The translations under genes and the position numbers were made by a program. Under the pieces are notes generated by a model. It searched no databases. It worked only from the letters and a program-made list of their open reading frames with translations, and had not been told where the DNA came from. A stretch of DNA of 64,000 bases, taken from the NCBI GenBank assembly GCA_963810305.1, contig CAWEMY010000017.1, positions 350,219-414,218 of the forward strand, given 5' to 3'. This document shows positions 43,656-51,400 of this stretch, one piece after another. Every line of letters starts with the position of its first letter. Within the stretch, counting starts at the first letter, position 1. Source of the stretch: an uncultured Acidobacteriota bacterium (GTDB taxonomy: Bacteria > Acidobacteriota > Vicinamibacteria > Vicinamibacterales > 2-12-FULL-66-21).

Positions 43656-43833
43656 CTAGCGACGAGAATACTCCAACGCGGATCGCGGGTCGCGGGGCGC
43701 GGGGCGCGTTCGCCGAGCGCCAGACGATGGTATCGTCGTCGGCTCGAACTGTCTCAGGGCACGGTTCTCGCCAGACACGCCGGAAGACTCGTCCCGCACG
43801 ACATGCGCGACGGGTCTACTGGAGTGATGATCG

Positions 43834-44214
43834 ATGCCCGCCCAAACCCTTGAATCGAGAGTAGAACGCCTGGAGAAGGTCGTGAGCAGACTGGAGCAGC
43901 TTCCGGAACGAATGACGGCACTCGAGTCGCAGATTGTCCAACTTCGGACAGGAATGCGCGATGAGTTTTCTGCCATCCGGCAGGAGGTGCGTGCGGGAGA
44001 CGATGAAACGCGGACGCTGATGCGTCGCTTCGAACGCGGCCGGGCCTCGGTTCGCGAGATGGCTGGTGGAACGATAGCGGAAACCGCGGCGGTGAAATGT
44101 GATTCACCGCGCACGGCCCGGACGACAATGTCCGTGAAACCATCGATCCAGAAGCCTTCCATGGCCGCACCGTATGCCGCGGTGGCTTTGGCCGGCGACG
44201 AACAGGGCCAGTGA
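43834..44214 (+). CDS. Coiled-coil hypothetical protein; 3' part probably chimeric
   Basis: Heptad pattern TLESRVERLEKVVSRLEQLPERMTALESQIVQLR; after ~44025 it reads antisense to the creatininase tail. Confidence 0.55.
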   Translation: MPAQTLESRVERLEKVVSRLEQLPERMTALESQIVQLRTGMRDEFSAIRQEVRAGDDETRTLMRRFERGRASVREMAGGTIAETAAVKCDSPRTARTTMSVKPSIQKPSMAAPYAAVALAGDEQGQ

Positions 44215-44917
44215 CGGCGAGCATCCCCGACGTTTCGCCCACGCCGGCATGCGCGTCGATGCCGAACGACGAGAGTTCAGCAGCGGAGAAGTGCTGAGCG
44301 GCGATCTTCTGTCCGCGCGCCTGCAGTGCCGGATCGGCGCGGAACAGCGCCGTCACGTGCAGCATCGTCACGCCGAACGTTTCGCTGACGAAATCGCACG
44401 CGTCGTTGATCGAAATGTTGTGGCCCGGACCGCTGTGTCCGTTGAGGACGAATATCCACTTGAAACCGTTCTGGGCGGCCTGTCCGCCGATATCGGCGAT
44501 GAGCGAACGCAGTGTAGATCGCCGGATTTCATACGTACCCGGATGTACGAACATGCGGCCGATGTGGTTGGCTCCACTGTTCCCGTAATTCAGCGAGGGC
44601 ATCAACACCACATTCCAGTCGGGCAGTGTTCGGCCGACACGGGCTGCTGCGCCGTTGGCCTCGTGCATCAGACCAAATGTGTCGGCGCCGAGCGGCAGGT
44701 GAGGACCGTGTTCGTGGACGGATCCCACCGGCAGCAGGAACATCGTCTTCTGACGGTCGAGCGCGGTAACGTCCGGATAGGTGAGCTCTTCGAGCTTGAA
44801 GACATTCGGCGTCGATTGGGCACGCCTGCCGCTCTGAGCCGTAGTCGTGTCGCTGGCGGAGAAAGACGCGATGAAAGACACGAGCAGGACAAATACTGCG
44901 CGACCCGGAACGGCCAT
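44020..44917 (-). CDS. Creatininase family protein (frameshifted/damaged C-terminus)
   Basis: Signal peptide, LPVGSVHEHGPHLPLGAD, LNGHSG, DAHAGVGETS; tail SSPAKATAAYGAAMEGFWIDG lies in another frame. Confidence 0.8.
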
Positions 44918-44944: not shown

Positions 44945-47900
44945 TTACTCGGACGTCGCGTTCGCGACCCCCTGCAGTGTAAATCCACCGACGACCGTGC
45001 CATCGTCTGCCCGCTGAATGATCGAGCCGTATCGCTTGCGCGGCTGCGGATCAATGAGCATGACGATCGGCTCGACGCCATTTGCTTTCAGGCGAATGTT
45101 TTCGAGCCACGCGCCGGCTTGCGGCCGGTAGGCGCGCGTCGTGTCGAGTTGACGTTTCAGCCGCCGGTCGGCGGCAGTGAGCTTCGCGAGTTCATCCTTG
45201 TCTTCGATGCGAAGCCGCACTGACTTCAGCCGCGCCTTTTTCGCCAGGGCCGACAGCCGCTTGCTGAGCACGATGCCACGGATCATGGAGGCGGACGCGC
45301 GATCCAGCTCCAATGCCCAGCTTTTCACGCCCGGCGTGGCGCCGACATCGAGCGGCACCGAGCGCACCAGCGGTCCGGCCGCCGGCTGCGGATTGACGAT
45401 CGACATGTTCTTCAGCCCACATTTCTTGCTGCCCGTCACCAGCGATCCGATGTTCAGCTCGGTGCTGGAAATCGAGTCGTTGTCAGCCGTGATCACCGCG
45501 AGCAGGCTGACGTTTGCGGGCGCCGTGCCTGGCACGGTCCAGTCGAACGGAATGATTCGCGCGCTGCCCGGTTCGATACGCGCCACGACCTTGTGGGCGC
45601 CGATCTGCTGCCAGGAGGAAGTGCCGGGCACGACGTTGTTCGGGAAGCCGCTCCAGAATCCTGTCGGCAAATCGGGAAGTGTCACCGCCGAGGCCGCGAA
45701 GAAGACCTTCACGGCAACGTTCACGGCGGCGTGAATTCCACGGTTGTGGACCTGCACAAAAACACGGACGGTGCGGTTCCGTTGAGCGTTCTCGTGCGTC
45801 AATCCGGCGGCGAAGACTCCGTGATCGTCTTCGAAAAACTCGAAGTCGACGTCCGCCGCGACCGGCTTCTGGAACGTGGGAGCATCGACCTTGATGTCCT
45901 GGCACTGCCACCAGAACGTCTGCGAGCCGAACGTGAACGGGTCCGGAACGCCGGATGGGGATGGTGACATGCGGCCCGAATCCACCGTGCTGTCCCGCAG
46001 GTAGACGTCCACCGCCGGCATCGTTGCCTGGTCGACGTGGGTCTCCCAGACCCCGCGGCTTTGTGTGGCCGCGCGCAGCAGCCGTGAAGGCGCGTGGAAG
46101 AGCAAGTCCTTCACTAGCGCGTTCGGAAGTCCGTTGCTGAATGCCGTCCACACCAGGCCGGCGTTTGGCGAGCGAAACACCCCGACGTCGGCGGCCACGA
46201 ACACGGTATCGGTGTCCGCGGGATCGAGCTCGATCGCATTGAGGGCGATGCTCGGCAGGCCCGCGCCGACATCCTGCCAGCTCGCGCCGGCGTTGTCCGA
46301 ACGGAAGACGCGGCCGCCCATGACGCCGGCAGCGACGCTGGAGTAGGTGACCCAGAGTCGATTTGGATTGCTCGGGTCCGCGAGCAGGTCGCTCACGTAT
46401 CCCGAGGCCGGACGTCCGACCAGGCTCGGAGCCGACCATGAACCGCCGGCGAGGCTGATCCGGTAGATTCGACCGTTCTCGGTGCCGACGTAGATGCGGC
46501 TGCTCGTCGCCACCGACAGCGCCGAGGCGAAGCCTGCGGCGGCGGGCAGGGAGACGGTCGTCCAGTTTGTTCCGGAGTCGCTGGAGATGTAGACGGTCTT
46601 TCCCGCCTGGACGACCACGGCGCCGTTGACATCCAGCGGAGGATAGAACAGCGCGCCGTTGGGATAGTTGTCCGCCGGCGGCACGTCGGGGCCGATCCAG
46701 GTCCAGGTCCCCCACGCTCCGCCGCGCGTGGACCGCTCCATCCCCATGCCGTAGAAGGTGTGGTAACACGTGTATGGGGATGAGGCGTTCGCACCGCAAT
46801 CACCGCCGTCGCCGTCCTCGACGTGAAACCACACTTCCTCACCCTCGTACCGCAGCGTGCCGTTATCCTGCGTGCCTCCGAGGAGCCAGGTCTCGAACTG
46901 CGGGTGCTGCGCGAGGAATTCGAACTCGGTGATGTTGAGCCCTTTGTTCAGCGACTGCCACGTCACGCCGGCATCGGCCGATCGGTAAACGCCGCCATCA
47001 TTGCCGACGATCAGCGCATTCGGATCAATCGGGCTGAACGCGATCGCGTGCTGGTCCGGGTGGATCGAATCGCCGGAGCCTTTGGCGCCGATGTTCGTCC
47101 ACGTCCATGTTCCGCCGGCTGATCGCACGCCGCGATGGACGTTGATGCCGCCGAGGTACAGCACATCGGGATTGTTCGGCGCGACCGCGGCGAACCAGTC
47201 GTACCAAGCCTGGCCTGTCTGCGCGTCCGGCGGCGTCGCCTGCGCGGTAAAGCCTCCGCCGAGAACGCTGCGGCGCCACAGGTACGGCGTCGGCATGTGC
47301 ACCGGGTCACCCGGACTCGAGTCGACAGGATCCAGAATCTGCGGATTACCGGCGCCCCAGACGTAGACCACATGACCGTCGGATGGAGCGTGGCGCACTT
47401 CGAGTCGCTGGAGACCGGACGGCATGCCGGGGAGCGACACGTGGCTCCACGACGTGCCGCCGTTGGTCGAGCGGAACAGCCCATCGCGGCACGCCGCAAA
47501 CACCTCTGTTGTCGAATTCGCATCGCCGCTGACCACAGGATGCATCGAGATGTCCCACGTGATCTGTGCTCGGCGTTGGGTCCAGAGAAGACCGCCGTCC
47601 TTGGATTCGAAGAGCCCGACTGTGGTTGCCGCCAGGAGGTGATTGCCATTCAGCGGATCGACGATCAGCTCATAGAACCCGATCCCTTCGAATGGAGCAG
47701 TCGCATGGAGCGTCCACGTGGTTCCGCCGTCGGTTGAACGCAGAAGGCCCACGCCGAGCAGTGACTGAGAATCCCCTTCTCCGGTCCCGGCGTACGCGAT
47801 CAGTGGATTGGTGGGATCGAAGACGACCGCACCGATCGACAGCGACGGCTGATCGTCGGTTCTCGGCTGCCACGTTTTTCCAGTGTCTTTGCTTTCCCAA

Positions 47901-48404
47901 ACGCCGCCTCCGGCGGCGCCGATCAGTACGTGGTCCGCATTACCCGGGTCGATCGCGACAGCAACGACGCGTCCGGCAACCGGAGGCCTGCTGCCTGCAC
48001 CGTGGCCGTAGGTCTGGCCGTGCGGGATGCTGAAAGGGCCCAGCGGTCGCCATGCCTGTTCGACCGGTGCAGCAGGCGCTGTCCTGGCGAGGTGCGATTT
48101 TTCCGCGAACGCAGTCAGGTACGGCGACTCGGCGCCACCCCGAGTGCCGCGCCTGCCCACTGATCGCGTCGAACCAGCCGGGACCACTGCCACCGCGGGA
48201 GTGGCCTTGTGAGCGACATCAGACTCGCCGGTCTGGCGCTGGCGCTCGAAGAAGTTGAGTCTCGCCAGCGCTTTGCCACCGCGGACACGCGGCAGTCGTC
48301 GCCGTGGCTTTTTGGCGCGGCGCGTCAGCTCGTCGGGTTCCAGCTTTCTTGACCCGCCGTCGTGGCGTCGGCGTTTCGGATTTGCGTTGAAACGGTTCTT
48401 TCAT
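44945..48404 (-). CDS. Large BNR/Asp-box beta-propeller (VPS10/GH74-like) protein with C-terminal beta-sandwich domains
   Basis: WRPLGP..AGRV, many SxDxGxTW boxes, HPDQH, GGTQDNG, GDGG, ATQSRG; frame open to 48400, and ATG 48404 fits if one A is removed. Confidence 0.8.
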
Positions 48405-48416
48405 GGCCTCTGCTCG

Positions 48417-48638
48417 TCAGCATTTGTCCTTCGCCGATGGTGCACCAGAATCGGAGCTACCGCCCCCGCGCTTGACGCCCCGCTGCTTTTCAAACTGCTG
48501 CTGCCGCGCGCGCGCGCCTCCGCCTTCGGTCTTGGCCGGGAGTGTCCGTCCTTTCTTTTCGATTTGTCTGCGTTTGGATGCGGCAGTTTCATGGCCCACC
48601 TCCGTAGAACTGCCGGCAGTTTCATGGCGCACCTCCAT
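48417..48638 (-). CDS. Small basic protein upstream of the BNR protein (start uncertain)
   Basis: Ends 12 nt before the next ATG; contains LPAKTEGGGARARQQQFEKQRG; duplicated GGAGGT-N5-ATGAAACTGCCG in its 5' region. Confidence 0.55.
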   Translation of the reverse strand: MEVRHETAGSSTEVGHETAASKRRQIEKKGRTLPAKTEGGGARARQQQFEKQRGVKRGGGSSDSGAPSAKDKC

Positions 48639-48734
48639 GGAGCTCAGCGCGGGTCGGGACCGACATCATACTCGTCTGTCGCGGCATCCCGCCTCGTACC
48701 GACTTCAGGGGACGTATAATTCCGCTCTCTCCGC

Positions 48735-51400
48735 ATGGTCGTCCAGGCCGGCTCGCGCATCGGGGCGTACGAGATCGTCGCTGCTCTCGGCCGGGGCGGC
48801 ATGGGCGAGGTTTATCGCGCGCGCGATACCAAACTGCGGCGCGAAGTCGCGATCAAGATCCTCCCGCACAACTTCGCCCACGATCCGGACCGAGTCGCCA
48901 GGTTCCAGCGCGAAGCGCAGGTCCTCGCGTCGCTGAATCATCCGAACATCGCCCAGATCTACGGGCTGGACGACAGCGCGGGGCTGCACGCGCTCGTCCT
49001 CGAGTTGGTGGAGGGGCCGACGCTGGAGGACCGCATCGCGCGCGGACCGCTCAACTGGACCGACGCGCTGCCGATCGCGCGGCAGATTGCCGAGGCGCTG
49101 GAAGCAGCGCACGAGCACGGCATCATCCACCGCGATCTGAAGCCCGCGAACGTGAAGGTCACGCCGGAAGGCCGTGTGAAGGTGCTCGACTTCGGACTCG
49201 CGAAACTGGCCGCGCCGGCCGACGCGCAAGGCGCAGTCGATGATCTGTTGAGCTCGCCGACGATGACGGGGTCGGCAACCGAGGCCGGCATGATCCTCGG
49301 GACCGCCAGCTACATGGCGCCGGAGCAGGCAAGCGGCAAGACCGTCGACAAGCGCGCCGATATCTGGGCGTTCGGCGTCCTGCTCTACGAGATGTTGACC
49401 GGCCGGCGACCGTTCCCTGGTTCTTCCACGACCGAGGTGCTGGCCGGCGTCATCAAGGACGCGCCGGACTGGACGGCGCTTCCAGACGATGCGCCTGTGG
49501 CGCTGCGGCGCCTGGTGGCGCGATGCCTCGCGAAGAATCCGACGCAGCGATTGCGCGACATCGGGGACGTGCGCCTCGAACTGGATCAAGTCAGTGCGGG
49601 TGGCGACGTTCCGGTTGCGCAGCCGCGCGGGCGCACACTGCCACTGTGGGTGATGTTGTCCGCGCTGCTTGCGGCCGCCCTTGCCGGCGCTCTTATCAGT
49701 GTGGCCATTCGCAAGGCACCGCTCATGGCGAGCGGTACTTCGCGCCGCGCTACCATCGCGACGACCAATCTAGGCGACGTGCGGGGGACCACGTTTCCTG
49801 TGGCGGTGTCAGCGGACGGGTCGCTGCTCGTGTACGCGACCGATACCGCCACGGGGGCATCGCTGCATGCGCGACGGCTCTTCTCTCTCGAGGCGCAACC
49901 GATCGAGGGAACGATCGGTGCTGTCGGCCCCTTCCTTTCGCGCGATGGGCGCGTGGTTGGCTTTCAGCGCGAAGGACAGATCTTCAGCGTTCCGGTGGCA
50001 GGCGGCCCCGTCGTCCACGCTCATGGGTCCGCGCACCTGGCGGAAGGGCTTCCGGCGTGGATGCCGGATGGTCGAATCGTCTACACCGGCCCGAAGGGCG
50101 GGCTGGTATCGATGAATGCCGACGGCTCGTCGCCTGAAACGCTGACGACGCCAGAGAGCGGCGAACGGCACTTGTCGCCGCACCCGCTGCCCGACGGGCG
50201 GACCGTTCTCTTCACAGCCGTGGGCGGTGACGCCAGCCATGCGCGAATCGAGGCGCTTTCGCTCGCGGACCGGCGCGTGTCGACACTCATTACCGGCGGC
50301 GCGGTCACCGCGCAGTACGCGGATGGCCACCTCGTGTACGGCGTGCCGGATCGACAGCTGGTCGCAGTGCCCTTCGACCCGGTGGGCGTCGCGCTCGCCG
50401 GCACGCCGCAGGCGACTGCCCGACCGGGCGAGCCGCAGCCGGTTTGGCGTCGCCCACTTCGCGGTGGCGCAGGGCGTGATGGTCTATTTGCCGCTGCCCG
50501 CCACCCACCTCGTGGAGATCGATCGATCCGGCCGCCGCGAGACGCTCGATCCGGTGCCGCGTCTCTGGCATCACCCGCGGTATTCGCCGGACGGATCGCA
50601 GATCGTCCTGGACGTGACCGATGCCGCCGGGGAGCGTGACGTCTGGACGTTCGATCGCTCGCTCAAAACGCTGTCGCGGGTGACTCACATCGGCGATGCG
50701 CACGATCCCTCGTGGCTGCCTGACGGCCGGTCCGTCTCGTTCCTGAGCTTCAAGTCGCGCGGCGGCCCGCTGATGATTGCTCCGGCCGACGGCGCAACGA
50801 ACCCCGAGCCGCTGCCGCTCGGCTCCGAATTCACCGCCGGCGGATCTCATCAATCCTGGCGGGTGGCTTCCCGACGGCTCGGCGTATCTCGGCGGCGTTG
50901 CCGATCGTGGAGGCCCGAGCGATCTCTGGCGCATCCCGCGCGCCGGAGGTCGTCCGGTGAAGATTGTCGGCACGCCGGCAGAGGAAGCCGCGCCGATGGG
51001 CAGCGCTGATGGCAAGTTGGTGGCGTACCAGAGCAACGAGACCGGACGGGTCGAGATTTATGTTCGTGGACTCGAGGGCCTCGGTGGCCGCGTGCAGGTG
51101 TCGAATCTGGGCGGCAGCGAACCGCTTTGGGACCGGAAAAGCAATCTCTTGCACTACATGGAGTTTGACGGCGATCGCCTGCGCCTGATCGCTGCCGCGT
51201 TACGCACGACGCCGACGCTTGGAGTGCTCGGCCGGACGGTGGTGTTTTCGGACTGGCGACCTGAACGATCGGAGAACCACGCGAACTTCGACATTCATCC
51301 TGACGGCAGCCGCTTCGTCATCCCCGAAGCCGGTGCACGAGGAAACCTCGTCGCAGTGTTCGACTGGTCGAAATCGCTATCGGGGAGCAGGGCAAGGTAG
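48735..51400 (+). CDS. Ser/Thr kinase with TM and TolB-like (PD40) beta-propeller (frameshifted)
   Basis: [37 protein letters not shown] repeats; upstream TATAAT. Confidence 0.92.

Follow-up and report, generated by a model that had tools for sequence, protein, structure and literature searches.

Introduction

Sortilin is a eukaryotic membrane receptor that has a single ten-bladed propeller, with cysteine-rich 10CC modules after it, and a propeptide that is cut by furin. Free-standing homologues of propeptides regulate cognate enzymes, as in the subtilisin-propeptide-like I9 inhibitors and the cathepsin-propeptide-like I29 proteins. EPYC1 is a sticker-and-linker scaffold with a shared Rubisco-binding motif.

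Here, we analysed a 64,000-nt stretch of DNA from an uncultured Acidobacteriota bacterium (the window), in which a small gene precedes a gene for a very large propeller protein and both carry the same peptide motif. We found with high confidence that the gene pair of the window is one instance of a two-gene module that is widespread and self-contained. Across the module, the product of gene 1 has ~50-100 residues with a short M-[K/R]-x-P N-terminus and one 13-residue amphipathic helix, and the products of gene 2 have 840-1200 residues, with disordered linkers on either side of the motif helix and a second helix before the propeller. As judged from its conservation, the gene pair is real, and we tentatively propose a function for it. 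Literature searches, with subscription journals outside their coverage, found no description of the pair, as had been stated in the original prediction. In the databases, the large family appears under generic names only and the small partner has neither name nor family: all small proteins are 'hypothetical', and no Pfam, NCBIfam or PADLOC family was found for them.

The module resembles each of these systems in part. Sortilin/VPS10 proteins (PMC6331531, PMC9356209) offer the likeness of an Asp-box propeller combined with an N-terminal peptide that could fill the propeller's own binding site. With the I9 and I29 proteins, the module has in common a small independent protein that is paralogous to the N-terminal part of a larger one and possibly acts on it in trans; however, I9 and I29 are folded domains that inhibit proteases, whereas here a 13-residue helix lies in a disordered protein and the partner is a propeller. 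With EPYC1 and the pyrenoid Rubisco-binding motif (10.1101/2020.08.16.252858), the likeness is a short helix in disorder that is present in one or several copies and recurs in proteins of the same assembly. EPYC1 has no sequence likeness to the module, and here the folded partner itself bears the motif, with a copy number in the small protein of usually one (1-3). For the module, condensates of the EPYC1 type and inhibition of the I9 and I29 type are only hypothetical.

The conserved pairing of a tiny protein with a neighbour whose front end it repeats gives a clear, testable hint to the control or assembly of the large protein, and it offers a concrete handle, namely one 13-residue helix with four conserved residues.

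Results and Discussion

The gene pair in the window

The following features were assigned (positions are those of the window).

44945..48404, minus strand: large gene; start ATG 48404-48402, stop 44945-44947; relatives up to 72% identity
48233..48301, minus strand: motif copy of the large protein, RRLPRVRGGKALARLNFFERQRQ; predicted helix core ~48236-48280
48319..48320, no strand: extra base in a GC run; because of it, the conserved start ATG 48404 and the remaining large gene stand in different frames
48405..48416, minus strand: spacer of 12 nt from the small-gene stop to the large-gene start ATG 48404
48417..48592, minus strand: small gene in the relatives' form; start M-K-L-P at ATG 48592-48590, stop TGA 48419-48417
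48417..48638, minus strand: small ORF as assembled and as first reported, 73 aa; from the ORF list
48477..48548, minus strand: motif copy of the small protein, RTLPAKTEGGGARARQQQFEKQRG; top genome-wide match of the small-ORF HMM, E=2.6e-4
48581..48644, minus strand: 31-nt direct repeat in two copies (48581-48611 and 48614-48644), 33 nt apart and 87% identical

The original prediction had placed a motif peptide in each gene and the genes 12 nt apart, and we found both peptides and the spacing as described; neither protein has a hydrophobic signal peptide that is visible by eye, again as reported. Because the extra base at 48319/48320 breaks the large gene as assembled, ORF finders call GTG 48193. 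The frame of the large gene is open up to TGA 48403-48401, and the large proteins of relatives begin with M-[R/K]-[G/E]-P, matching ATG 48404. We take ATG 48404 to be the true start and GTG 48193 to be wrong.

For the small gene, an MKLP start was seen in the small proteins of the relatives L021, L022, L024 and L025. Its ribosome-binding site and gene start are doubled by the 31-nt direct repeat, and ATG 48638 of the 73-aa ORF comes from the upstream copy of that repeat. Tandem Repeats Finder reported no repeat on 48100-48800, and the 31-nt pair was detected by a separate direct-repeat search. The start and motif of the small gene are out of frame with each other because one base is missing at 48580 in the assembly. 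These results also correct gene calls: in this family, a misplaced start readily cuts off the N-terminal extension, and the small gene is readily overlooked.

Pairwise BLASTP of the small against the large segment gave 14/30 identities (E=1e-4 for a single comparison). We then took 57 large proteins, all from other organisms, built an HMM from their N-termini alone and ran it on all six frames of the 4.6-Mb genome (90,407 fragments); the top two matches were the large and small sites (E=5e-7 and E=0.027), and the next had E=0.46. The match over the large-protein motif extends over 48319-48212, with E=2.5e-7 in the set of loci and 5e-7 over the whole genome. A second HMM was built only from the upstream small ORFs of other loci, the window sequence not being used, and returned the small ORF of the window as the top genome-wide match (E=2.6e-4, 23.3 bits; next E=0.14); for its training loci, the scores of this HMM are partly circular because it was refined on its own matches. 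There was no other strong motif carrier in the genome of the window or in four isolate genomes (five genomes searched). The small-protein profile also gave no match at E<=0.01 to longer proteins (206-2000 aa) in a word-indexed database, which is weak as evidence.

The pair recurs across phyla

The N-terminal motif was present in the large ORF of 60 homologous loci. Of the 59 loci for which 150 nt or more of upstream sequence was available, 47 had a same-strand small ORF upstream with the same helix (match of at least 20 bits within 800 nt), representing at least nine phyla by record titles. In the controls, the opposite strand of the same regions reached a maximum of 16.6 bits at one locus and at most 5.5 bits elsewhere, and downstream regions reached a maximum of 11.1 bits. 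A scan with the HMM trained on large-protein N-termini alone gave a second upstream match with i-E<0.01 in 18 loci. The two-gene arrangement proposed originally is confirmed by these counts, and an upstream motif ORF is found at homologous loci, the lack of which had been named as evidence against it. The small ORF was not detectable in 12 of the 59 loci and is therefore dispensable in some lineages.

In relatives, cultured isolates included, the two genes have separate frames, stops and variable spacing; the distance from the small to the large gene ranges from -29 to +120 nt, with many overlaps of 1, 4 or 20 nt. There are no conserved neighbours, as no recurrent family was found among 150 flanking ORFs from 34 loci. 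An exhaustive HMM search of 1.84 billion representatives yielded 361 matches at E<=0.001, and among the 150 of these that were listed, nearly all were 50-130 aa long and aligned from residue 1. The large family comprises at least 2045 sequence clusters at E<=1e-30 among 8000 candidates scored and is common in soil and freshwater bacteria. Cultured carriers, by record title, include Larkinella, Hymenobacter lucidus, Fibrivirga algicola and several Streptomyces, so tests would be ordinary bench work.

Between close relatives, substitutions in the small ORF concentrate at the third codon position (e.g. 229 vs 123 and 78 at positions 1 and 2). We also considered the small ORF of the window as a decaying partial duplication of the 5' end of the gene; this was dropped on account of the second upstream matches, the 47 of 59 loci and the third-position bias.

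Two classes of copies with one helix face

The copies fall into two separate classes, small and large ('AAERL' vs 'ALARL'), and the nearest neighbour is a copy of the same class from another locus for 27/32 small and 28/32 large copies. Common to both classes is a basic/aromatic stripe, [K/R]-x3-R-x3-F-x3-R. Its first R is conserved in 32/32 copies of both classes, its F in 29/32 small and 23/32 large copies, and its second R in 32/32 and 26/32, respectively. In the large-protein copy, GGK..R keeps both its K and its R in 49/49 relatives (alignment A1).

At the DNA level, the 72-nt cores of the small and large copies within a locus have a median identity of 46% (range 31-76%, 45 other loci), in agreement with the original view that the DNA of the two segments has diverged while the motif is held at the protein level. 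Core identity was 0.36 within a locus vs 0.32 between loci (permutation p ~3e-4), and L026, L028 and L030 have 67-76% nucleotide identity between their own two copies. This excess of within-locus similarity is small and could stem from shared composition or occasional gene conversion. The small protein is an old paralogue of the first ~40 residues of the large protein.

Predicted structures and the fold of the large protein

AlphaFold2 predicted an isolated helix at residues 58-70 of the large protein (pLDDT 71-86) between segments with pLDDT <50, and a helix at residues 12-24 of the small protein (pLDDT ~80) with disorder on both sides. Segments that fold upon binding typically show up in this way, as a confidently predicted helix amid disorder. 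The tail of the small protein is variable, charged and predicted to be unstructured, with a low-complexity composition rich in E, D, K, P and T. An ESM Atlas look-up with the L021 small protein gave top scores of 0.77-0.79, which lie inside the chance range given by the Atlas tool.

The AlphaFold2 model of the L021 large protein, which is 72% identical to that of the window, had a pLDDT of 81, and its top 25 Foldseek matches were all GH74 chains (E ~1e-28, TM-score 0.63 on target, ~780 aligned columns). The original prediction had drawn on VPS10-type propellers for comparison; by the top structural matches, the fold is closest to that of the GH74 tandem propellers, the assignment of tandem seven-bladed Asp-box propellers being made from the model and its Foldseek matches. 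From its N-terminus on, the large protein comprises a disordered region that includes the motif helix, then a second helix, the GH74-like double beta-propeller and C-terminal domains, which are a beta-sandwich and an alpha/beta domain. The motif in the large frame is the conserved N-terminal helix of a large, unnamed GH74-like double beta-propeller family.

The tandem Asp-box beta-propeller fold is common to the large protein and the GH74 xyloglucanases (5fkt, 6p2l, 4lgn, 2cn3), and profile-to-sequence matches reach E=6.5e-24, yet identity is 17-20%. The D of D-I-G-G, which is the first catalytic Asp of GH74 and the position where the 2cn2 and 2cn3 chains differ, has no counterpart: of 49 relatives, 41 have Ala and 8 have Gly there. 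Its column corresponds to L021 position 187 (profile alignment to 6p2m, 2cn2 and 2cn3), and there is no Asp at 186-188. Invariant polar residues are nevertheless many in the propeller and include H-P-D-x-H, D-G-D-G-G-D and T-Q-D-N-G. Unlike GH74, the large protein lacks an evident signal peptide or carbohydrate-binding module, and it has a disordered N-terminal extension with a helix as well as a partner small gene. Scores for the F510_1955 family glycosylhydrolase (NCBIfam NF045728) were below the 175-bit cut-off (143.7 for the window, 149.5 for L021 and 139.9 for L049), and these matches are split into 4-5 repeat-like stretches each.

With Pfam Sortilin-Vps10, the large protein scored 83 bits vs a cut-off of 33, spread over five partial stretches, and the matches of the large family to sortilin chain sequences cover ~110 residues only (E ~1e-5). 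The single ten-bladed propeller of sortilin differs from the two-propeller GH74 structures matched by the large-protein model. Moreover, the sortilin propeptide is cleaved, whereas here the second, free copy of the helix is a separate gene and cleavage of the large protein is only hypothetical.

Possible roles of the helix

We tentatively propose that the cognate propeller has a site to which the helix binds as a peptide ligand; the large protein would present this ligand on a tether, and the small protein would present it free. The helix on the flexible tether of the large protein would bind the propeller in cis or on another copy, and the small protein would provide the same peptide in free form, which may compete with, cap or cross-link the tethered copy. 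The free helix would thereby set the accessibility or assembly state of the propeller. Coupled translation is suggested by the gene overlaps and would tie the amounts of the small and large proteins together. For the explanation as a whole, our confidence of about 0.45 blends a high confidence in the module with a lower one in this proposed mechanism. The small protein may also be a propeptide mimic, a decoy ligand or a co-assembly peptide, as put forward in the original prediction.

Points for this reading are the isolated predicted helix in disorder, the restriction of the motif to the module, and fused forms: in the cluster representatives P0180 and P0182, a small-type and a large-type helix stand in one reading frame before the propeller. 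Some small proteins have 2-3 motif copies (L072, P0181 and P0183); these, like the fused forms, are more easily reconciled with a multivalent or co-operating role than with simple competition. Nucleic acid, membrane or a third protein would be equally possible binding partners of the K/R/F/R face. A complex prediction for L049 (Larkinella), with the full-length large protein of 858 aa (alignment A3) and the small protein of 57 aa (alignment A2), gave scores of 0.71, 0.05 and 0.01; the median of 0.05, against a mark of 0.32, comes from a run without controls and gives no verdict either way.

An unlikely explanation is that both proteins bear the helix as a tag by which they dock at the same place, on a third component from outside the module; a chaperone, a scaffold, a machine for export or targeting, the membrane or nucleic acid would be candidates. 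In both proteins the helix lies near the N-terminus, after a similar M-[K/R]-x-P start and before a flexible linker, a layout that resembles known N-terminal targeting peptides, and the residues of its conserved face are basic and aromatic. An evident signal peptide is absent from both proteins, though the solved relatives of the fold are secreted enzymes. However, no conserved neighbour offers itself as the partner, and no encapsulin or microcompartment shell family was found among the 150 flanking ORFs of 34 loci. Cargo tags mark several proteins, whereas no other strong carrier was seen in the five genomes, in which the motif is restricted to the module. Cell envelopes differ greatly among the phyla that have the module, so one specialised secretion system would not suit them all, and the small within-locus covariation is not expected with a universal hub.

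A bolder form of the binding mechanism, which we regard as quite unlikely, is that the module is a self-assembling one-sticker system in which large copies link head-to-tail into chains or a condensate. Each large protein would have a binding site on its propellers and a matching helix on a long flexible tether. The small protein would regulate, one helix acting as a monovalent cap and two or three as a cross-linker. If so, the module would be a portable two-gene device with which cells construct and adjust a protein assembly in the cytoplasm, and gene transfer would have spread it across phyla.

It is improbable that the two proteins are an enzyme and its substrate, with the small protein recognised by a leader-like helix, its variable tail modified or cut, and the helix of the enzyme serving as a cis activator or placeholder. 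Ribosomal peptide precursors follow a leader-and-core pattern, and the small proteins likewise combine a conserved N-terminal recognition element with a hypervariable C-terminal tail; the invariant polar residues of the propeller suggest an active or metal site. Yet the tails are of low complexity (E, D, K, P, T) without a recurrent modifiable pattern, the first GH74 catalytic Asp is missing in 49/49 relatives and tandem copies of the helix are atypical of precursors. No known peptide-recognition or modifying domain, including those of RiPP type, was found, as Pfam and NCBIfam gave only propeller families and a weak CARDB match. With anti-phage defence or toxin-antitoxin pairs, the likeness is in form only (a small upstream gene, overlap and no fixed neighbours); three large and two small proteins had no PADLOC match at E<=0.01, and no toxin-type Pfam domain was found.

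The close or overlapping genes and a paralogy that spans the start region as well as the helix would also be expected if the small ORF acted mainly in cis, as an upstream frame through which translation of the large gene is coupled or tuned, and if its likeness to the large N-terminus were a by-product of an old duplication of the 5' end. We consider this highly improbable, since the helix face is kept at the amino-acid level in at least nine phyla while the DNA of the copies falls to a median of 46%, substitutions show the third-position bias, and small proteins with 2-3 copies and fused forms occur, all of which indicates that the peptide itself is under selection, beyond the mere act of being translated. 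That there is no real pair, but a chance or compositional likeness of segments rich in R, K, Q, G and A or one gene split by sequencing errors (the assembly has frame breaks here, apparently in neighbouring genes too, and fused forms exist elsewhere), is already contradicted by the genome-wide HMM ranks, the 47/59 loci against clean controls, and the separate frames, stops and variable spacing in relatives.

Frame breaks in the window

Evidence on the frame breaks came from single low-depth contigs per run that derive from relatives in soil metagenomes, not from the window's own sample; habitat labels were disregarded for runs whose word share was small. At 48319/48320, one contig each of the runs X1, X3 and X5 (three studies) has one base fewer; these contigs have a depth of 2.3-3 and 3-5 other differences per 151-296 nt. 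After 48580, an X3 contig carries one inserted base, and an X13 RNA-library contig skips 48579-48610 and is thus without 32 nt of the duplication. No contig covers both genes; the X13 RNA-library contigs lie on 48413-48560, 48611-48695 and 47961-48160, which gives position only and is not proof of transcription.

The three lesions of the window, i.e. the extra base at 48319/48320, the missing base at 48580 and the 32-nt duplication, are all absent from the contigs of near relatives. Because these relatives are unbroken, we read the frame breaks of both genes as assembly errors or a strain-private lesion. Programmed frameshifting was rejected, as the two breaks require opposite shifts and relatives' contigs lack them. 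Of the extra A that had been suspected at 48401-48404 there is no sign, and the break of the large gene is the extra base at 48319/48320. The fusion of the two ORFs into one gene, which had been raised as the outcome of corrected reads, is not seen here: the relatives' contig variants keep TGA 48417-48419 between the genes.

The shared motif and the start of the large gene

The original prediction held that a small ORF carries the same motif as the N-terminus of the neighbouring giant propeller, and because both peptides were located and BLASTP of the two stretches gave 14/30 identities (E=1e-4, a single comparison), this observation is correct as written. The features concerned are the following.

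GTG 48193 to stop 44945-44947, minus strand: large ORF as called by the ORF finder, 1082 aa, BNR/Sortilin-type
48233-48301: large-frame motif, RRLPRVRGGKALARLNFFERQRQ
TGA 48403-48401: upstream limit of the open large frame
48417..48638, minus strand: small ORF as called by the ORF finder, 73 aa
48477-48548: small-ORF motif, RTLPAKTEGGGARARQQQFEKQRG
48581-48611 and 48614-48644: two copies of a 31-nt direct repeat

A scan restricted to one genome for each species turned up 79 loci; in 67 the identity to the large protein of the window is 44-72%. Large ORFs of these relatives start with M-[R/K]-[G/E]-P, followed by a variable linker and then P-G-G-K-A-L-A-R-L-x-x-F-x-x-x-R-G; an alignment of 49 full-length relatives shows no variation at the M, at the lysine of GGK or at the R four positions further on. 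The large-frame motif is coding and is the conserved N-terminus of the family. The small-ORF stop is followed after 12 bases by ATG 48404, which is off by one base relative to the large ORF. Because this ATG would yield MKEPF, and MREPF or MKEPF starts occur in four homologous loci (L021, L025, L035 and L036), the true start of the large gene is, judged from the aligned sequences, ATG 48404, which in turn places a one-base frame break in the assembly between ATG and motif. A 23-nt direct repeat (83% identical) lies just after the large-protein motif (48211-48233) and upstream of the small gene (48658-48680), and may be a remnant of an old duplication or chance.

Frame breaks in the assembly

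We compared contigs of four public sequencing runs with positions 47900-48900 of the window. One contig each of runs X1, X3 and X5, from three studies, has one base fewer at 48319/48320, which restores a common frame for ATG 48404 and the remainder of the large gene. The small gene of relatives starts with MKLP; the window has ATG-AAA-CTG-CCG at 48592, in a frame different from that of the small-gene motif. In an X3 contig an extra base behind 48580 puts start and motif in one frame. A contig of a fourth run, X13, has no counterpart of 48579-48610; this takes out one of the two 31-nt repeat copies and likewise joins the two frames. Both frame breaks are thus private to the assembly of the window, as read from one low-depth contig per run for each variant, the contigs being relatives 96-99% identical and from samples other than the window's own; no single contig covered both genes. 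Under all these variants TGA 48419-48417 stays between the two genes, and the variants do not fuse them into one gene.

Neighbouring genes also look frame-broken: PD40 repeats are present in a Ser/Thr kinase ORF (48735-50639, plus strand) as well as in an ORF that overlaps it in a different frame (50227-51009), and a creatininase match ends at profile position 174/238 inside a 387-aa ORF (43754-44917, minus strand). Indel errors are thereby suggested for the contig more widely, and because of this we favour assembly indels for the breaks in both module genes, although a strain with both genes disabled may be the explanation instead.

Conservation of the small gene

A first HMM, built from 57 large-protein N-termini only, found a second same-strand match 150-400 nt upstream (i-E<0.01) in 18 loci. 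A second HMM, built from small ORFs, scored at least 20 bits in 47 of the 59 loci whose upstream sequence was long enough. Because this HMM was refined on upstream regions, the loci included in it have partly circular scores; the controls and the first scan are independent of that refinement. Read on the opposite strand, these regions gave 16.6 bits in a single locus and no more than 5.5 in any other, and the highest score downstream of the large gene was 11.1 bits. An upstream motif-bearing ORF is thus present in most homologous loci, as anticipated. The 12 loci without a small-ORF match include a cyanobacterial/Nitrospirales group, three Gaiellaceae, a Planctomycetaceae MAG and one Streptomyces, and one of the 12 extends only 187 nt upstream.

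The record titles place the 47 loci in Acidobacteriota, Chloroflexota, Verrucomicrobiota, Actinomycetota, Gemmatimonadota, Bacteroidota, Pseudomonadota, Desulfobacterota and Binatia. The small proteins have 51-188 aa (median 66), and their genes stop anywhere from 29 nt into the large gene to 120 nt ahead of it, with frequent overlaps of 1, 4 or 20 nt. When 1.84 billion representatives were searched exhaustively with a profile, 361 proteins reached E<=0.001, nearly all of them 50-130 aa long. Where the sources give a name, it is always 'hypothetical protein', and none of the proteins has a Pfam domain. Simple-repeat tails in some of them, (N-D-E-S)n in L039:2206-2556 and (A-E-T-D-E)n in L059:2288-2587, underline that conservation is limited to the helix region.

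Two classes of one helix

In 27 of 32 dereplicated loci the small copy has its nearest neighbour in the small copy of another locus, and in 28 the large copy is nearest to another large copy. Because nearest neighbours are mostly of the same class across loci, the copies form two old classes, inherited or transferred together, the small mostly A-A-E-R-L and the large mostly A-L-A-R-L. In both classes [K/R], R, F and R are retained at i, i+4, i+8 and i+12, which is one helix face, and the common helix is under selection. Core identity was 0.36 within a locus versus 0.32 between loci (permutation p about 3e-4), a slight excess for which co-evolution, composition or occasional conversion could be responsible; core DNA identity within a locus had a median of 46% and reached 67-76% in three loci.

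The helices also occur in other arrangements. Natural fused forms are known from two cluster representatives, P0180 and P0182, both of them contig-end fragments: each carries a helix of either type, small and large, in a single frame with the propeller after them. In two related metagenome contigs (L100:1155-1643 and L101:1765-2253) a small-type start is fused directly to a large-type helix, and it looks as if the stretch between two repeats was lost by recombination between them. Tandem small-type helices with acidic linkers are found in L072 (429-992) and P0181, with two each, and in P0183, with three. Because the small protein of L046 (2336-2629, 98 aa) also copies the second conserved helix of the large protein (A-x-x-Y-x-x-A-x-x-x-L type), a longer stretch was duplicated in that lineage. 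A repeat protein of 613 aa, P0188, matches the small-protein profile weakly at six places; R-L-G-D-F-L-x-x-R-G-L-P-G-D is part of its repeat unit, and the resemblance of this TPR-like repeat is probably accidental.

Structure and interpretation

AlphaFold2 modelled the large protein of L021 (1172 aa, 49-row alignment, mean pLDDT 81) with disorder at 6-46, a helix at 58-70 (pLDDT 71-86), disorder at 78-113, a second helix at 117-131, propellers to about 815 and C-terminal domains at 900-1170. The small-protein model has one helix (residues 12-24, pLDDT about 80) and is otherwise unstructured. We file the small protein as a free paralogue of the large protein's own candidate N-terminal regulatory peptide. 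The helix would be a ligand of the cognate propeller, tethered in the large protein and free in the small protein, a tentative reading to which we assign a probability of roughly 35-40%.

The shared helix face would equally be kept if both proteins bound a common third partner, which we consider possible at clearly lower odds. The bolder reading that the module self-assembles, to which the tandem helices could be fitted, is somewhat more doubtful still. An enzyme-substrate pair is improbable: GH74 xyloglucanases top the Foldseek ranking for the large protein (E about 1e-28, TM 0.63, 17-20% identity), but despite the same fold it lacks a defining catalytic residue of theirs, the first catalytic Asp being Ala or Gly in 49/49 relatives. 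Least likely of these readings is a cis-acting upstream frame, which the position of the small ORF would suit; differences among close relatives collect at its third codon positions.

The large protein passes the Pfam Sortilin-Vps10 cut-off through repeat-like partial matches alone, is under the cut-off of NCBIfam F510_1955 and has no match in PADLOC. The sortilin propeptide embodies a similar idea to that of a tethered ligand, but its propeller differs from that of the large protein. Free-standing propeptide homologues are among the closest known things, as are EPYC1-type motif-based scaffolds. Literature searches found no description of the small/large gene pair.

Distribution and genomic neighbourhood

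In a six-frame search of the window's genome, the large-motif HMM had its two best matches at the window's own two motif sites (E=5e-7 and 0.027), and the best match of the small-ORF HMM was the window small ORF (E=2.6e-4). Each of four isolate genomes gave one strong match to the small-protein profile, the small gene of the module, and in two of the four the next-best match was the N-terminus of the large gene; a fifth, a Streptomyces without a detectable small ORF, gave none below E=0.03. A Pfam scan of 150 flanking ORFs at 34 loci found no recurrent neighbour family. The pair is a conserved, portable two-gene module that stands alone. Because the large gene has no close relative in 12 same-genus genomes (G001-G012), where the best matches (E 1e-17 to 1e-26) are distant paralogues, its distribution is patchy; copies 69-72% identical occur in MAGs titled Acidobacteria and Pyrinomonadaceae. 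Such a pattern is compatible with the pair having been spread by gene transfer.

Immediately upstream of the module, the window has a gene for a Ser/Thr protein kinase (48735-50639, plus strand), as have two of the 34 flank-scanned loci (L035:438-2042, minus strand; L040:2-1273, plus strand), with PD40 repeats in the kinases of the window and L040. Because such kinases are common in these phyla, this adjacency may be chance.
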